From Escherichia coli (lineage in GTDB: Bacteria > Pseudomonadota > Gammaproteobacteria > Enterobacterales > Enterobacteriaceae), in NCBI RefSeq assembly GCF_050320075.1, contig NZ_CP190018.1: DNA of 64,000 nucleotides; one strand, 5' to 3'. The position numbers and the translations under genes are program-made. Shown here in pieces: positions 23,708 to 55,492 of this stretch. The notes beneath the pieces are model-generated. The model was not told where the DNA came from, did not search any database, and saw only the letters and a list, made by a program, of their open reading frames with translations. The stretch's first letter is position 1; each line of letters opens with the position of its first letter.

Positions 23708-23789
23708 TTGGTATTTACTTAATGCGTTTGTGAGATCCAGTTCTTGTTGCGCTCCTTTTATGAGTAATGCCATATAAAGTGACTGGCGC

Positions 23790-23990
23790 AGGGAGCGCGC
23801 AGGGGGCGGCCAATCGCCGCCGCCCCCTGCACCCCCGGGCTCTGGCGAACAAAATCTCCGCTGCGCGGTACCCTCAGCTTATCCCTTGCGGCTACCGGGT
23901 CGGGCGCGAGGTAACATCCCTGTAAAACGCGCCCTCAGCCCACATCCATGTGGGCTGCCCCGGCCTTCAGGGAACGCCTCGGCGATTTTG
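23790..23990. repeat. GC-rich palindromic non-coding element in the copA-ybaP spacer
   Basis: No ORF of 60 aa or more that is not attributable to overlap with copA or ybaP. Contains a 12-bp perfect inverted repeat gcagggggcggc / gccgccccctgc with an 8-nt loop and a second palindrome gcccacat-cc-atgtgggc; GC content well above the flanking sequence. Confidence 0.35.
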
Positions 23991-24135
23991 ACGCCACCAA
24001 CACCGGTGCAGTCTTTCGTTTCAAAGCAAAAACAATTTTTCGATCATATTTAAGCTACCACTGAACAAGCCTCATAACTCCATTTGCGCCATCCCTCCCC
24101 GCGCGCTAGCATGATATTTCACAAAGGGAGGTCGT

Positions 24136-24930
24136 ATGGATCTGTTGTACCGGGTAAAAACGCTTTGGGCCGCGCTGCGCGGTAATCATTACACCTGGCC
24201 TGCTATCGATATCTCTCTTCCCGGCAATCGCCATTTTCATCTGATTGGCAGTATTCATATGGGCAGCCACGATATGGCTCCCCTGCCCACCCGTTTGCTC
24301 AAAAAGCTCAAAAACGCCGATGCGCTGATCGTCGAGGCGGATGTTTCCACCAGCGATACGCCTTTTGCTAATTTGCCTGCCTGCGAGGCGCTGGAAGAGC
24401 GCATTAGCGAGGAGCAACTCCAAAACCTGCAGCACATTAGCCAGGAGATGGGCATTTCTACCTCACTCTTTTCTACCCAACCGCTGTGGCAAATCGCGAT
24501 GGTTCTTCAGGCGACGCAGGCACAAAAACTGGGGCTGCGGGCAGAATACGGTATCGATTACCAGCTATTGCAGGCGGCGAAGCAACAACATAAACCCGTG
24601 ATTGAACTGGAAGGGGCTGAAAACCAGATTGCCATGTTGCTCCAGCTCCCTGACAACGGACTGGCACTGCTGGACGATACGCTGACCCACTGGCACACCA
24701 ATGCACGGTTGCTGCAACAAATGATGAGCTGGTGGCTGAATGCGCCGCCGCAAAATAATGAAATAACGCTGCCTAATACGTTCAGTCAATCGCTGTACGA
24801 TGTGCTGATGCATCAGCGAAATCTCGCCTGGCGGGACAAATTATGCGCCATGCCGCCGGGGCGCTATGTGGTCGCAGTCGGTGCACTACACCTGTATGGA
24901 GAAGGGAATTTGTCGCAGATGTTGCGCTAA
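24136..24930 (+). CDS. ybaP: TraB/GumN-family protein YbaP
   Basis: 264-aa ORF, ATG at 24136 with GGAGG upstream. Confidence 0.85.
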   Translation: MDLLYRVKTLWAALRGNHYTWPAIDISLPGNRHFHLIGSIHMGSHDMAPLPTRLLKKLKNADALIVEADVSTSDTPFANLPACEALEERISEEQLQNLQHISQEMGISTSLFSTQPLWQIAMVLQATQAQKLGLRAEYGIDYQLLQAAKQQHKPVIELEGAENQIAMLLQLPDNGLALLDDTLTHWHTNARLLQQMMSWWLNAPPQNNEITLPNTFSQSLYDVLMHQRNLAWRDKLCAMPPGRYVVAVGALHLYGEGNLSQMLR

Positions 24931-25012
24931 AAAAATGGCCAATATCGCTATTGGCCCGTCAAAGAGGAATTTCATTTTTTTATTATTATGCCGTCACTTT
25001 AAGCGACGGTGT
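24929..25012 (-). ncRNA. chiX: ChiX (MicM/SroB) small regulatory RNA
   Basis: Minus-strand sequence ACACCGTCGCTTAAAGTGACGGCATAATAATAAAAAAATGAAATTCCTCTTTGACGGGCCAATAGCGATATTGGCCATTTTTT matches the ChiX sequence as I recall it, including the terminator hairpin (ggccaata/tattggcc) and U-run; lies between ybaP and ybaK. Confidence 0.85.
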
Positions 25013-28977: not shown

Positions 28978-30654
28978 ATGCATCACGCCACCCCGCTTAT
29001 CACCACCATTGTTGGCGGCCTTGTGCTCGCCTTTATCCTCGGCATGCTGGCCAATAAACTACGTATTTCTCCTCTGGTGGGATATCTGTTAGCGGGTGTG
29101 CTGGCAGGACCATTCACTCCGGGCTTTGTTGCCGATACCAAGCTTGCGCCGGAACTGGCTGAACTGGGCGTCATTCTGTTGATGTTTGGCGTCGGTTTGC
29201 ACTTTTCGCTGAAGGATTTGATGGCGGTAAAGGCCATCGCCATTCCCGGTGCGATCGCCCAGATAGCCGTGGCGACGCTGCTGGGTATGGCGCTCTCCGC
29301 CGTGCTGGGCTGGTCGTTAATGACCGGTATCGTGTTCGGCTTATGCCTTTCCACCGCCAGTACCGTGGTGTTACTGCGCGCACTTGAAGAACGGCAATTA
29401 ATAGACAGTCAGCGTGGGCAAATCGCCATCGGTTGGTTGATTGTGGAAGACCTGGTAATGGTTCTGACGCTGGTGTTGCTGCCCGCAGTGGCAGGAATGA
29501 TGGAACAAGGCGATGTGGGCTTTGCCACTCTTGCTGTCGATATGGGGATCACCATCGGCAAGGTGATCGCATTTATCGCCATTATGATGCTGGTAGGTCG
29601 CCGTCTGGTGCCGTGGATTATGGCACGCAGCGCAGCAACCGGTTCCCGTGAGCTGTTTACCCTGTCGGTGCTGGCGCTGGCGTTAGGGATTGCCTTTGGT
29701 GCGGTGGAGCTGTTTGATGTCTCCTTTGCACTCGGTGCGTTCTTTGCCGGGATGGTGCTGAACGAGTCTGAACTGAGTCACCGTGCCGCCCACGATACGC
29801 TGCCATTGCGCGACGCGTTTGCGGTGCTGTTTTTTGTCTCCGTCGGGATGTTGTTTGATCCGTTAATTCTGATTCAGCAACCGCTGGCAGTGCTGGCGAC
29901 GCTGGCGATTATTCTGTTTGGTAAATCGGTCGCGGCACTGTTCCTTGTGCGTCTGTTTGGTCACTCCCAGCGCACGGCGTTAACTATCGCCGCCAGCCTG
30001 GCGCAGATTGGTGAGTTCGCGTTTATCCTGGCGGGACTGGGAATGGCATTGAATTTACTGCCGCAGGCCGGACAAAACCTGGTACTGGCAGGGGCGATTT
30101 TGTCGATTATGCTCAACCCGGTCCTGTTTGCGCTGCTGGAGAAATATCTGGCGAAGACCGAAACGCTGGAAGAGCAGACGCTGGAAGAGGCTATCGAAGA
30201 AGAGAAGCAGATCCCAGTGGATATTTGCAACCATGCGCTACTGGTAGGTTACGGTCGTGTAGGCAGCCTGCTGGGGGAGAAATTGCTCGCCTCTGATATT
30301 CCTTTAGTGGTGATTGAGACGTCACGAACCCGTGTTGATGAACTGCGAGAGCGCGGGGTCCGCGCAGTATTGGGCAATGCGGCGAACGAAGAAATTATGC
30401 AACTGGCGCATCTGGAATGTGCAAAATGGCTGATCCTGACGATTCCCAACGGTTATGAAGCGGGTGAGATTGTGGCATCTGCCCGCGCGAAAAATCCGGA
30501 TATTGAGATTATTGCCCGCGCCCATTATGACGATGAAGTGGCGTATATCACCGAACGTGGTGCAAATCAGGTAGTGATGGGTGAGCGTGAAATCGCCCGT
30601 ACTATGCTGGAACTGCTTGAAACGCCACCGGCGGGTGAGGTGGTGACGGGGTAA
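28978..30654 (+). CDS. ybaL: CPA2-family cation/proton antiporter with C-terminal TrkA/RCK domain
   Basis: 558-aa ORF; membrane domain followed by LVGYGRVG Rossmann-type motif. Confidence 0.9.
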   Translation: MHHATPLITTIVGGLVLAFILGMLANKLRISPLVGYLLAGVLAGPFTPGFVADTKLAPELAELGVILLMFGVGLHFSLKDLMAVKAIAIPGAIAQIAVATLLGMALSAVLGWSLMTGIVFGLCLSTASTVVLLRALEERQLIDSQRGQIAIGWLIVEDLVMVLTLVLLPAVAGMMEQGDVGFATLAVDMGITIGKVIAFIAIMMLVGRRLVPWIMARSAATGSRELFTLSVLALALGIAFGAVELFDVSFALGAFFAGMVLNESELSHRAAHDTLPLRDAFAVLFFVSVGMLFDPLILIQQPLAVLATLAIILFGKSVAALFLVRLFGHSQRTALTIAASLAQIGEFAFILAGLGMALNLLPQAGQNLVLAGAILSIMLNPVLFALLEKYLAKTETLEEQTLEEAIEEEKQIPVDICNHALLVGYGRVGSLLGEKLLASDIPLVVIETSRTRVDELRERGVRAVLGNAANEEIMQLAHLECAKWLILTIPNGYEAGEIVASARAKNPDIEIIARAHYDDEVAYITERGANQVVMGEREIARTMLELLETPPAGEVVTG

Positions 30655-30689
30655 ACGGTGGTTGCCGGATAATAGGCGCGGATATGTAG

Positions 30690-30772
30690 GCCTGATAAGA
30701 CGCGCCAGCGTCGCATCAGGCATCGAGAGCCAAATGCCAGATGCGGCGTGAACGCCTTATCTGGCCTACGAA
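30690..30772. repeat. REP/BIME element (two inverted REP copies)
   Basis: gtaggcctgataagacgcgccagcgtcgcatcaggca and tgccagatgcggcgtgaacgccttatctggcctac, inverted relative to each other, in the ybaL-gsk convergent spacer. Confidence 0.7.
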
Positions 30773-30783
30773 CCGACGATAAC

Positions 30784-32088
30784 TTAACGATCCCAGTAAG
30801 ACTCTTCCAGGCTGTCTTCACGCTCCGGCAAGCCGCGCGTTAAACGAGGTGAATGCTGGTTCAGTACCTGATAGCTCACACGGTTAGCATATTTACACAC
30901 CTGCGCTAATGACGAATACGTCAACCAGGTGAATTTATGTTTGCTGGAGTTTGGTACGTTGCTACGGTGGTAGCTGTTGGCGGTAATGTCATGCAGCAAC
31001 GCTGCCAGTGCGCCATCCCCCGCTCCATTAGTGTTCATGATTTTTTCCGGCCCGCCCATATACGGCGCAATGTGCGAATAGACACGCAACGGATTCTGGC
31101 AATCCTTGTGGCGCATGGCGCGGCTAAACTCATACTGGTTAAATTCCGCTATAGCGCCCGGCAGCAGCGGATGCTGGGTTTTACGTTTCGCTTCGTCTTC
31201 AGTAAAGCCCGCCATATACAAGCCGATTGGCCCGGCGGTGCACAGCACCAGATCAACCCAGTCCAGCGCCTTGTCAGATGCCAACAACGGATCGCTTTCT
31301 CCGGTCAACGCTTCGGCTTCATCTTCGTTCATCGCAAGGATAGAAACGTGGTCTTTGAGGAATTGCTGCCACCACTGCGGATTCTCGGCAATGACAAACT
31401 TGGTGCCCAGCGTCAGCACCACCGGTACGTTATATTTCTTCGCGTACTCAATGGCTTTCATGGTTGCTTCCGGCATGGGTTCACCCGGCTTGCAACGCAC
31501 CAGATAAGAAGTGAGAACCAGTGCCGAGGCTCCGGCAATCACATCTTCCGGAATACTTTCAGCCCGCAGCTGGTTCATGTGGCCAGGGCTGATAGCAAAG
31601 GTACGTTCCCCGGACTCGCCAATCAGCGTAAAGCAACGACCAATCGGGCCATCCACGCCTTGTAGATAGTTAAGATCGGTACGGCTGGAGGTGTTACACA
31701 GGTAACGATAGGCATAGCTGCCAATTTCAATATTGCTACACATGACGCCCAGCAGCACCGAACGGTCGTCCGCGAGCACCGAGTAGTTGTGCATGGTGTT
31801 ACCAATAGTGCCACCCGCAAATTGATGGGTAATCAGGTTTTTCTGTTTTAGTTCCTGATAAAGCGCTTCGGCTACGTCATCCTCAATCACCAGTGAATGC
31901 CCGGCGCTTAATCCATAACGCTCAATGAATTCGTCATCCACTTTCGCTTCAATATCGACCAGCGTTTGATCGATACCCACTACCCAGGCGGCGCTGGTTT
32001 CGTTTTCTGGCTGGAATTGCTGAAGCAGCGGATCGCGTGCATTTACAGGGAAGTAATGTTTGGATTTACGTTTACCGGGAAATTTCAT
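30784..32088 (-). CDS. gsk: Inosine-guanosine kinase
   Basis: 434-aa ORF, PfkB-family sugar kinase fold with N-terminal extension; starts MKFPGKRKSKHYFPV. Confidence 0.95.
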   Translation of the reverse strand: MKFPGKRKSKHYFPVNARDPLLQQFQPENETSAAWVVGIDQTLVDIEAKVDDEFIERYGLSAGHSLVIEDDVAEALYQELKQKNLITHQFAGGTIGNTMHNYSVLADDRSVLLGVMCSNIEIGSYAYRYLCNTSSRTDLNYLQGVDGPIGRCFTLIGESGERTFAISPGHMNQLRAESIPEDVIAGASALVLTSYLVRCKPGEPMPEATMKAIEYAKKYNVPVVLTLGTKFVIAENPQWWQQFLKDHVSILAMNEDEAEALTGESDPLLASDKALDWVDLVLCTAGPIGLYMAGFTEDEAKRKTQHPLLPGAIAEFNQYEFSRAMRHKDCQNPLRVYSHIAPYMGGPEKIMNTNGAGDGALAALLHDITANSYHRSNVPNSSKHKFTWLTYSSLAQVCKYANRVSYQVLNQHSPRLTRGLPEREDSLEESYWDR

Positions 32089-38085: not shown

Positions 38086-40017
38086 TCAAATGGGGCGGAT
38101 ACTTTCTTCATCCAGCTCCGCATCGAAGAACCGACGCAGGGTCTGAATATTATTATCCGCAATAATGGACTCGCGCGCCTGCGCAAGTTTTTCTTCGTAT
38201 ATCGCCTGACGCCATTCCAGCGGCGTACGCACCGCGGGATTATCATCTTCAACGATAGTCAGTTCAACCGTTGAACCTTTTAACATGCTCAACGCTTCAG
38301 CCAGTTTTTGCTGTGCGCCGCGGTTGTTCAAATGCCGCTGAGAGGAGCGCAAATGCAGACATACTGCGTTGTCGCTCTCCTCTTTCCAGGCATTTAACGC
38401 CACCTGTTCGACCAGTTTTGGTAGCGAAAGTTGACTCACCTGAGCCGCCCACGGGTCGCGCTCAATGGCTTCTGCCGCCAGCTTCGCCGCCAGTTCCGGC
38501 GTTTTTTCATGTTCCAGCGCTTTTTTCAGCGCCTTCGGCGTAGCGACCACTTCTTTTTGCTGCATCACTGGAGTGGTGGCCTTCCAGCGATACGCTTCTT
38601 TTTTGGCTGGCGCTTTTTCCAGCGCCGATGGCACCGGACGCGCCTGAACGCGATCGGTGACCGAAGCCAGTCTTTCCAGCGCAGCGTTATTCACCGGCCG
38701 CGCGCGGGTAGCGGCTGCCGGTTCACTCTTTTTTGCTTTGGTTGCTCCCTGCACGCGCTGCAACTGCTGGCGCGCCGCCAGCACCTGGCTGGTGGTTTCC
38801 GGGAGCGGTACAGTCGGTGCCTGCTGCGGCGCTGATTGCGGTTGCGGCGGCACCTGGGTTGGCGTCATTACTGCCGTTGGCGCGACGGGCGCAAAGGACT
38901 GGCGTGGCACTTCTGGCTCAGGCAGCGGCATACGCGGATGGAACGCCAGCGCGCGCAACAGCGTCATCTCAACGCCCATACGGCGGTCTGGCGCATACGG
39001 TAATTCTTTGCGACCAATCAACAGCGTCTGATAGTAAAGCTGAATATCCGTCGGCGGTATGGTGCGCGCCAGTTCACGCATCCGCAGCTCGATAGCGGCC
39101 ATGTCGTTGCCAAGTGCAGCAGGCGAAAGTTGTACCATCGCAATACGATGCAACAGGCCGAGCATTTCCACCAGCAACGCTTCCCACTCGATACCACGGG
39201 CAGCGGCTTCATTAATCAGTGCCATTACGCGCTCGCCGTTGGCCTCGATCATCGCTTCAACCAGCGACAGCGCCTGATCGTCGTCAAGCGTACCCAGCAT
39301 CGCACTGACCGCCTGAGTTGAAACCTGGCCGTCACCGCTGGCAATCGCCTGGTCGGTCAGACTTAAGGCATCTCGCAGGCTGCCTTCAGCGGCGCGTGCC
39401 AGCAATTGCAGCGCCCGCGGCTCGTGAGCGATATGTTCTTCGTTGAGGATGTGCTCAAGCTGATGGCGAATTTGCTCGACATCCAGCGCCTTGAGATGAA
39501 ATTGCAGACAACGTGACAAAATCGTCACCGGCAATTTCTGCGGATCGGTCGTCGCCAGCAGAAACTTAACGTGCTCTGGCGGCTCTTCAAGGGTTTTTAA
39601 CAGTGCGTTAAAGCTGTGGCGCGACAGCATATGCACTTCGTCGATCAGATAAACTTTGAAACGACCACGCGCCGGAGCGTACTGGACGTTATCCAGCAGG
39701 TCGCGAGTGTCTTCAACTTTAGTGCGCGAGGCGGCATCGATTTCAATCAGATCGACAAAGCGCCCCTGCTCGATTTCACGACAGTTATCGCACACGCCGC
39801 ACGGCGTCGCGGTAATGCCGGTTTCGCAGTTTAGCCCCTTCGCCAGCAGTCGGGCGATAGAGGTTTTTCCGACGCCACGGGTGCCGGAAAAAAGATAAGC
39901 ATGATGAATACGCCCTAACGACAAGCCGTTCGCCAGTGCGGTCAGCACATGTTCCTGGCCGACGACGTCAGCAAAGGTTTGTGGGCGCCATTTTCGGGCT
40001 AAGACCTGATAACTCAT
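38086..40017 (-). CDS. dnaX: DNA polymerase III subunits tau and gamma
   Basis: 643-aa ORF with AAA+ Walker A (GTRGVGKT); contains the frameshift site listed separately. Confidence 0.97.
   Translation of the reverse strand: MSYQVLARKWRPQTFADVVGQEHVLTALANGLSLGRIHHAYLFSGTRGVGKTSIARLLAKGLNCETGITATPCGVCDNCREIEQGRFVDLIEIDAASRTKVEDTRDLLDNVQYAPARGRFKVYLIDEVHMLSRHSFNALLKTLEEPPEHVKFLLATTDPQKLPVTILSRCLQFHLKALDVEQIRHQLEHILNEEHIAHEPRALQLLARAAEGSLRDALSLTDQAIASGDGQVSTQAVSAMLGTLDDDQALSLVEAMIEANGERVMALINEAAARGIEWEALLVEMLGLLHRIAMVQLSPAALGNDMAAIELRMRELARTIPPTDIQLYYQTLLIGRKELPYAPDRRMGVEMTLLRALAFHPRMPLPEPEVPRQSFAPVAPTAVMTPTQVPPQPQSAPQQAPTVPLPETTSQVLAARQQLQRVQGATKAKKSEPAAATRARPVNNAALERLASVTDRVQARPVPSALEKAPAKKEAYRWKATTPVMQQKEVVATPKALKKALEHEKTPELAAKLAAEAIERDPWAAQVSQLSLPKLVEQVALNAWKEESDNAVCLHLRSSQRHLNNRGAQQKLAEALSMLKGSTVELTIVEDDNPAVRTPLEWRQAIYEEKLAQARESIIADNNIQTLRRFFDAELDEESIRPI
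38690..38734 (-). other. dnaX programmed -1 ribosomal frameshift site (A AAA AAG heptamer plus downstream stem-loop) generating gamma
   Basis: Minus strand GCAAAAAAGAGTGAACCGGCAGCCGCTACCCGCGCGCGGCCGG; slippery heptamer at 38734-38728, an in-frame-after-shift UGA two codons later, and a GC-rich stem-loop immediately 3'. Encodes the ...KAKKSEPAAATRARPVN... segment. Confidence 0.85.
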
Positions 40018-55377: not shown

Positions 55378-55492
55378 GGGTGGGGGCCCTGCCAGCTACA
55401 TCCCGGCACACGCGTCATCTGCCTTGGCTGCTTCCTTCCGGACCTGACCTGGTAAACAGAGTAGCGTTGCGGGAGAACCAACAGAGCCCCCA
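55378..55492 (-). ncRNA. ffs: 4.5S RNA (signal recognition particle RNA)
   Basis: Minus strand reads GGGGGCTCTGTTGGTTCTCCCGCAACGCTACTCTGTTTACCAGGTCAGGTCCGGAAGGAAGCAGCCAAGGCAGATGACGCGTGTGCCGGGATGTAGCTGGCAGGGCCCCCACC, matching the 4.5S RNA including the conserved domain IV region; ends are +/- 2 nt. Confidence 0.9.

Follow-up and report, generated by a model that had tools for sequence, protein, structure and literature searches.

A single BIME-2-type REP unit in the convergent ybaL–gsk spacer of Escherichia coli and its possible role at transcript 3' ends

In Escherichia coli, ybaL and gsk are convergent, and their spacer carries two REP sequences, one of type Y and one of type Z2, arranged in inverse orientation. 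We are practically certain that together they form a single BIME-2-type unit. The repeat family is an ordinary, textbook one in E. coli, and the K-12 copy of the element has already been catalogued in a genome-wide survey. Taken as a whole, the element is probably best explained as a BIME-2 unit that would have been spread by the REP-associated transposase (RAYT) and that would protect RNA 3' ends. Beyond annotation, the importance of the element is small. The present analysis adds a corrected sub-type (BIME-2 and not IHF-binding), exact boundaries, a census of alleles and a link to a published Rho-dependent boundary.

Results

The window analysed here is a stretch of 64,000 nt of E. coli DNA (assembly GCF_050320075.1, contig NZ_CP190018.1). 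The features of the ybaL–gsk region are listed in Table 1. The gene names were taken from the RefSeq annotation beneath 100%-identical matches. The product of ybaL belongs to the K+ efflux transporter family. The REP pair is extragenic and lies between the two stop codons. The tetranucleotide GTAG is found at 30686–30689 on the + strand, and CTAC at 30766–30769 is the GTAG of the − strand. REP1 and REP2 are copies in inverse orientation, and both are also palindromic in themselves (inverted repeats I1–I4).

Table 1. Features of the ybaL–gsk region in the window
Feature	Position	Strand	Length	Remarks
ybaL CDS	28978–30654	+	558 aa	ORF; Pfam Na_H_Exchanger and TrkA_N; stop TAA at 30652–30654
Spacer between the stop codons	30655–30783		129 nt	ybaL and gsk convergent
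Flank, ybaL stop to REP1	30655–30685		31 nt	weak, possibly decayed half-REP ttgccggataataggcg
Element proper (REP1, linker, REP2)	30686–30769		84 nt	
REP1, Z2-type	30686–30722	+	37 nt	GTAG-first on +; gtaggcctgataagacgcgccagcgtcgcatcaggca
Rfam RF02564 (naRNA4) match	30689–30766	−		model positions 1–77; Y–linker–Z2 unit
Inner linker	30723–30734		12 nt	tcgagagccaaa; joins the non-GTAG ends of both REPs
REP2, Y-type	30735–30769	−	35 nt	GTAG-first on −; tgccagatgcggcgtgaacgccttatctggcctac
Gap, REP2 to gsk stop	30770–30783		14 nt	
gsk CDS (inosine/guanosine kinase)	30784–32088	−	434 aa	ORF; Pfam PfkB; stop TAA at 30784–30786

The initial annotation of this DNA had placed a REP/BIME element in the convergent spacer and had quoted two repeat sequences for it. 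Both were found exactly and are mutually inverted. It had also put the gsk stop within about 15 bp of the element, and the distance measured from the CTAC end of REP2 agrees with this. In substance the annotation was correct, but two details had to be changed. The REP copies were said to fill the spacer, but the element proper takes up only 65% of it. The range of 30661–30783 given for the element does contain it, but overshoots it by 25 nt on the ybaL side and by 14 nt on the gsk side.

In the flank next to ybaL, a fuzzy match to the tail of Y was seen at 30661–30685: CGCCTATTATCCGGC versus CGCCTTATCCGGC, with 2 inserted bases. This weakly suggests a third, decayed REP, and the stretch may be at most a half-REP relic. 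The flank at 30655–30685 is not the same in K-12. A weak sigma-70-like match on the − strand (30669–30698; TTATCA, 18-nt spacing, TATTAT; 9/12 positions) overlaps REP1 and is directed into antisense ybaL. In the 800-nt region there are 3 sigma-70-like matches, with 0.9 expected.

The E. coli REPs, or palindromic units Y and Z2, reportedly go back to Stern 1984 and Gilson 1991. REP1 and REP2 resemble them in size (37 and 35 nt, within the range of 30–40 nt typical of REPs), in the 5' GTAG, in the imperfect palindrome with an AA/GC internal mismatch, and in their extragenic position at gene 3' ends. A GTAG tetranucleotide located 5' of the stem foot is a conserved feature of REPs (PMC3333891). 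For the units flanking the E. coli RAYT gene, Table 1 of Nunvar et al. 2010 gives GTAGGacgGATAAGgCGttCACGcCGCATCcGGCA (Y) and GTAGGcatGATAAGaCGcgcCAgCGtCGCATCaGGCA (Z2) (PMC2817692). It turned out that REP2, read on the − strand, has all the conserved positions of this Y consensus, and that REP1 agrees in the same way with the Z2 consensus. A search against the REP consensus had been proposed earlier as a check on the element, and this is its outcome. The published Z2 string is found unchanged in the K-12 copy of REP1. REP1 of the window differs from the tabulated Z2 by CCT in place of cat, at a variable position. In REP2, an A-T pair replaces the G-C pair of the Y consensus, which is a compensatory change.

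Using the REP tail CTTATCNGGCCTAC as a query, we found 2 exact occurrences in 64 kb, both of them in the ybaL–gsk spacer. No further REP copy was detected in the 64-kb window, and looser matches to the REP head were at or below the level of shuffled sequence. Of 5426 complete E. coli genomes, 5425 were matched by a 451-nt query that includes the element, with a median of 12 places in each. Thus, the element is dispersed.

Ton-Hoang et al. 2012 define BIME-1 as Z1 plus Y with a long L linker, often with an IHF site, and BIME-2 as Z2 plus Y joined by a short linker and mostly present as tandem copies (PMC3333891). By these published definitions, Y and Z2 joined by a linker of 12 nt make a single BIME-2-type unit. 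Tandem copies, which are usual for BIME-2, are not found here, as the element consists of one unit only; other E. coli alleles at the ybaL–gsk site do have two units, but these are of other REP types. Table DS3 of Sutormin et al. catalogues the K-12 copy as BIMEs2 500669–500752 (PMC6379681). When the table was mapped to K-12, an offset of +775 bp placed this interval and its four neighbours in K-12 intergenic spacers. REP features are absent from the RefSeq K-12 annotation, even at REP325.

IHF binding had also been attributed to the REP copies, which would make the element a BIME-1 (a RIB/RIP element). Binding of IHF to certain REP pairs is known in general. The present pair, however, has Z2 and not Z1, and the linker is far from the long L type. 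The element is also shorter than the listed BIME-1, which measure about 97 bp, and the K-12 copy stands under BIME-2 in Table DS3, not under BIME-1 (PMC6379681). The IHF core WATCAANNNNTTR has no match in 30655–30783, even with one mismatch allowed. With the IHF core absent, the linker short and a Z2 unit present, this reading is effectively refuted, and we give it almost no credence.

BIME-2 REP325, located between yjdM and yjdN, has in common with the element the unit types, their inverse orientation and the RF02564 match. It differs in having six tandem 100-bp units (Y, 11-nt linker, Z2, 17-nt spacer), where the element has one. The inner linker occupies the matching position in both and is one nucleotide longer in the element (TTTGGCTCTCGA versus ACGGTGCCGAC in REP325). 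On RF02564, the element scores 80.7 bits on the − strand (gathering score 59.5; E = 1e-12 for the whole window) and 58.3 bits on the + strand, just under the threshold. Genuine REP325 units score 95–111 bits on the same model. As the locus is gsk–ybaL and not yjdM–yjdN, the element is a paralogous copy of the repeat and not the naRNA4 gene.

Could the element act at the level of DNA or the nucleoid? It would then serve as a site of gyrase binding and cleavage, or would give rise to an RNA of the naRNA4 kind that links DNA cruciforms together with HU. The naRNA4 match above the gathering score fits this idea, and REP RNAs with two hairpins, together with HU, condense DNA in vitro (PMC4550694). 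However, RF02564 recognises any Y–Z2 unit, so that the match reflects only membership in the repeat family, and the score of the element is below that of REP325. Y plus Z2 is the type preferred by gyrase (PMC1475751; PMC6379681), and the earlier attribution of gyrase and IHF binding is a generic one for the family that fits this copy only in part. BIME-2 are preferred gyrase targets of which only a subset is cleaved (PMC6379681). For the K-12 copy, 0 gyrase cleavage sites are recorded under four Topo-seq conditions (ciprofloxacin, rifampicin plus ciprofloxacin, microcin B17 and oxolinic acid; PMC6379681), and the BIME-2 that are cleaved are mostly multi-unit, whereas the element is a single unit. 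A role at the DNA level therefore appears improbable to us.

We also assessed how the RNA of the spacer may fold. The predicted folding energy is −57.6 kcal/mol for the − strand and −58.9 kcal/mol for the + strand. The z-score is about −4.9 on both strands, and 0 of 200 shuffled sequences were as stable. The hairpin of REP1 on its own has −21.9 kcal/mol, and that of REP2 has −19.4 to −19.8 kcal/mol. The form with two hairpins reaches about −41 kcal/mol, and one long REP1:REP2 hairpin reaches −47 to −49 kcal/mol. To assess the conservation of the stem, we used an alignment of 17 hand-picked REP copies from the gsk–ybaL spacer of E. coli alleles, E. albertii, Citrobacter and Kluyvera. In this hand-picked set, 97.8% of the cells are paired, and 5 pairs are changed on both sides. 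Columns 8 and 34 show all four Watson–Crick types, including the compensatory pair of REP2. In the controls, 0 of 500 shuffles were as good, and slid alignments gave 18–43% pairing. Thus, the REP stem is kept by compensatory changes among copies. No intrinsic terminator (a GC hairpin followed by a T run) was found in 30300–31100 on either strand. As the hairpin has no subsequent T run, the intrinsic-terminator reading was rejected.

The initial annotation had suggested looking for copy-number variation at this site in other strains. Such variation is present: alleles with one, two and four REPs occur among the 5426 complete E. coli genomes of our census, in which about 50 genomes fall outside all classes. 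The two-REP form (129 nt in the window, 132 nt in K-12) is found in 4666 genomes. In 583 genomes the spacer is 83 nt long and holds one REP, which has a different sequence and different flanks and lies 32 nt from the gsk stop. The four-REP form is found in 17 genomes; it is 208 nt long and lies about 18 nt from the gsk stop. A further 97 genomes carry IS1397 in the loop of REP1, after 30707 (30707/30708). An insertion of two genes bounded by REPs is complete in 3 genomes and partial in 10 more. Thus, the ybaL–gsk spacer is a minor hotspot at which REPs turn over and insertions occur.

IS1397 is an insertion sequence specific to REPs (PMC1525189). Its position in the loop of REP1 is therefore an independent confirmation of the family assignment. 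The 15 IS1397 junctions that were listed are 100% identical throughout, and this suggests a single insertion with later clonal spread. In one carrier, E. coli 2020N21-110, the insertion lies at L004 66–1497. The flanking duplication is imperfect, with CCA on one side and GCA on the other.

The two-gene cassette in the gsk–ybaL spacer encodes proteins of 98–111 aa and 150–153 aa and is bounded by REPs. It is carried by Escherichia sp. E1V33 (L010 3295–4285) and E. coli 2013C-4282 (L092 2436–3186), and in the latter it is also bounded by a diverged duplicate of the 3' end of ybaL. The search for families returned only a sub-threshold match to DUF7336 in Pfam and no match in NCBIfam.

A second type of REP pair, GTCGGATGCGGCGTAAACGCCTTATCCGACCTAC with GTAGGCCGGATAAGATGCG.CAGCATCGCATCCGGCA, is located downstream of gsk in 1 to 2.5 tandem units. 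It was found in E. whittamii (L013) and in other Escherichia lineages (L009, L012 and L090). Its presence in other lineages makes the allele of the window and K-12 look like a replacement and not like an expansion of this second array.

Outside E. coli, gsk and ybaL are convergent in 78 of 80 Enterobacterales species, with a spacer of 29–1776 nt. Species-typical REPs occupy this spacer in Escherichia, Citrobacter, Kluyvera and Kosakonia; there is one REP in E. albertii, and there are five in E. whittamii. Many genera have no REPs at this site, and their spacer of 29–45 nt holds a short, plain GC hairpin. In Erwinia and Mixta the spacer is 29–35 nt long and holds only a short GC hairpin. Thus, in the lineages examined, the gsk–ybaL site always holds some hairpin, and in Escherichia this hairpin comes from REPs that turn over.

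The distance between the element and the gsk stop codon bears on translation. According to Liang, Rudd and Deutscher 2015, as cited in PMC12306157, ribosomes stall at REPs that lie no more than 15 nt from the stop codon. The REP hairpin might then stall the ribosome near the gsk stop, trigger tmRNA and lower the output of Gsk. The GTAG of REP2 begins 14 nt after the gsk UAA, and in the long REP:REP hairpin the G of this GTAG is the first paired base. However, the lone Y hairpin, which is the first to form in transcription, pairs from 18 nt, beyond the reported limit. The distance to the stop codon is also not conserved among the one-REP and four-REP alleles. With 14 nt standing against 18 nt and with the distance varying among alleles, an effect on translation is a borderline case, and we consider it doubtful.

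We also considered the alleles as a natural series in REP number, REP type and distance to the gsk stop (14, 32 and about 18 nt) that would set the translation of Gsk or the stability of its mRNA. We judge this quite unlikely. If true, it would lead to heritable differences in purine salvage between E. coli lineages. The REP-bounded spacer is also an entry point for IS1397 and the two-gene cassette.

Rho-dependent boundaries near the element have been reported for K-12. Adams et al. 2021 sequenced K-12 RNA directly with and without bicyclomycin and listed Rho termination regions in Supplementary file 2 (PMC7815308). One of them, at 501531 on the + strand, has a Rho score of 2.59 (p = 9e-7; PMC7815308). 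On the gsk-sense strand, this position follows the CTAC of Z2 by 4 nt. As the Rho positions derive from coverage windows of 800 nt, this 4-nt closeness may be partly fortuitous. Another region, at 501016 on the − strand, has a Rho score of 6.3 (PMC7815308) and lies on the ybaL-sense strand, about 0.4 kb inside antisense gsk. According to Adams et al., such positions are nearer to processed 3' ends than to the true sites of termination (PMC7815308). In the Term-seq 3' ends of their Supplementary file 1, gsk and ybaL are absent (PMC7815308). Neither Dar and Sorek 2018 nor the RepRanger paper has anything on gsk or ybaL in its supplements, and we found no literature that names ybaL, gsk and REP together. 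On the gsk strand, the RNA past the element is C-rich and G-poor, with a C/G ratio of 1.4–1.9 over 600 nt. This fits Rho loading, but antisense coding RNA is generally C-rich.

Discussion

Dar and Sorek 2018 describe transcripts that are terminated by Rho and whose ends are protected by REPs and other stem-loops (PMC6061677). The element resembles these cases in that its stable stem-loop stands at a gene end and lacks a U tract, the boundary beside it in K-12 is sensitive to bicyclomycin, and C-rich RNA follows downstream. It differs from them in that, for gsk and ybaL, the exonuclease trimming and the stabilisation are what we infer. REP-stabilised 3' ends of Rho-terminated transcripts are reportedly also the subject of Peters 2012.

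Since the element lies in the shared 3' UTR of two convergent genes, it is transcribed from both sides. The repeat family, selfish in origin, would have been spread and reshuffled by the REP-associated transposase TnpA-REP (RAYT). RNA of either strand may fold into two stable hairpins or into one long REP:REP hairpin. The most probable course of events is the following. Transcription would pass the element and would be ended by Rho farther on, where the antisense RNA is untranslated. Exonucleases acting in the 3'-to-5' direction would trim the RNA back to the foot of the hairpin. The hairpin foot would thus define and protect the 3' end of the gsk mRNA and probably that of the ybaL mRNA too. 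On balance, we favour the view that the hairpins both define the 3' ends of gsk transcripts, and probably of ybaL transcripts, terminated by Rho and protect them; in this view the Rho boundary comes from published K-12 data, and the protection from exonucleases is presumed from the hairpins.

The initial annotation had stated that the REPs stabilise upstream mRNA. This is plausible at the ybaL–gsk site and agrees with the K-12 Rho region next to the element, although as worded it was a generic statement about the family.

The element could also be a selfish or neutral repeat without a selected role, because intergenic 3' regions tolerate the insertion of REPs and their RAYT-mediated turnover. 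The spacer is strongly polymorphic in the presence and the type of its repeats, as the allele counts in E. coli show, and the same is seen in the differing REP numbers of E. albertii and E. whittamii and in the many genera where only 29–45 nt separate the two genes. The BIME-2 cluster of K-12 between ybaQ and copA is likewise missing from the window strain. However, some stable hairpin, be it formed by a REP or by a simple GC stem, is present in every lineage examined, and in K-12 a Rho-dependent boundary lies at the foot of the element. A selfish origin is, moreover, compatible with an effect on RNA 3' ends. A purely neutral repeat is thus a less likely explanation, to which we give perhaps a minor share of our belief, and 3'-end protection by a RAYT-spread unit is preferred. 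Against such protection stands that the site requires no particular architecture, since one, two or four REPs of differing types occur there and an IS insertion is tolerated.

With its variation in REP number and in the distance to a stop codon, within a single pair of convergent genes, the ybaL–gsk site could serve as a natural test bed.

Other differences between the window strain and K-12 were observed nearby. Between copA and ybaP, K-12 carries ybaQ and a five-REP BIME-2 cluster (L094 12560–12874), and the window strain is without both. In the window, the copA stop (23707) and the ybaP start (24136) are separated by a gap of 428 nt (23708–24135) without an ORF of more than 55 aa. This gap aligns to K-12 only over the first 71 nt beside ybaP.

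Further Rfam matches above the gathering score were found in the window on the − strand: the dnaX frameshift element (38689–38753), the small RNA sroB (ChiX; 24929–25012) and the small SRP RNA (55387–55483). All of them are expected in this region of E. coli.
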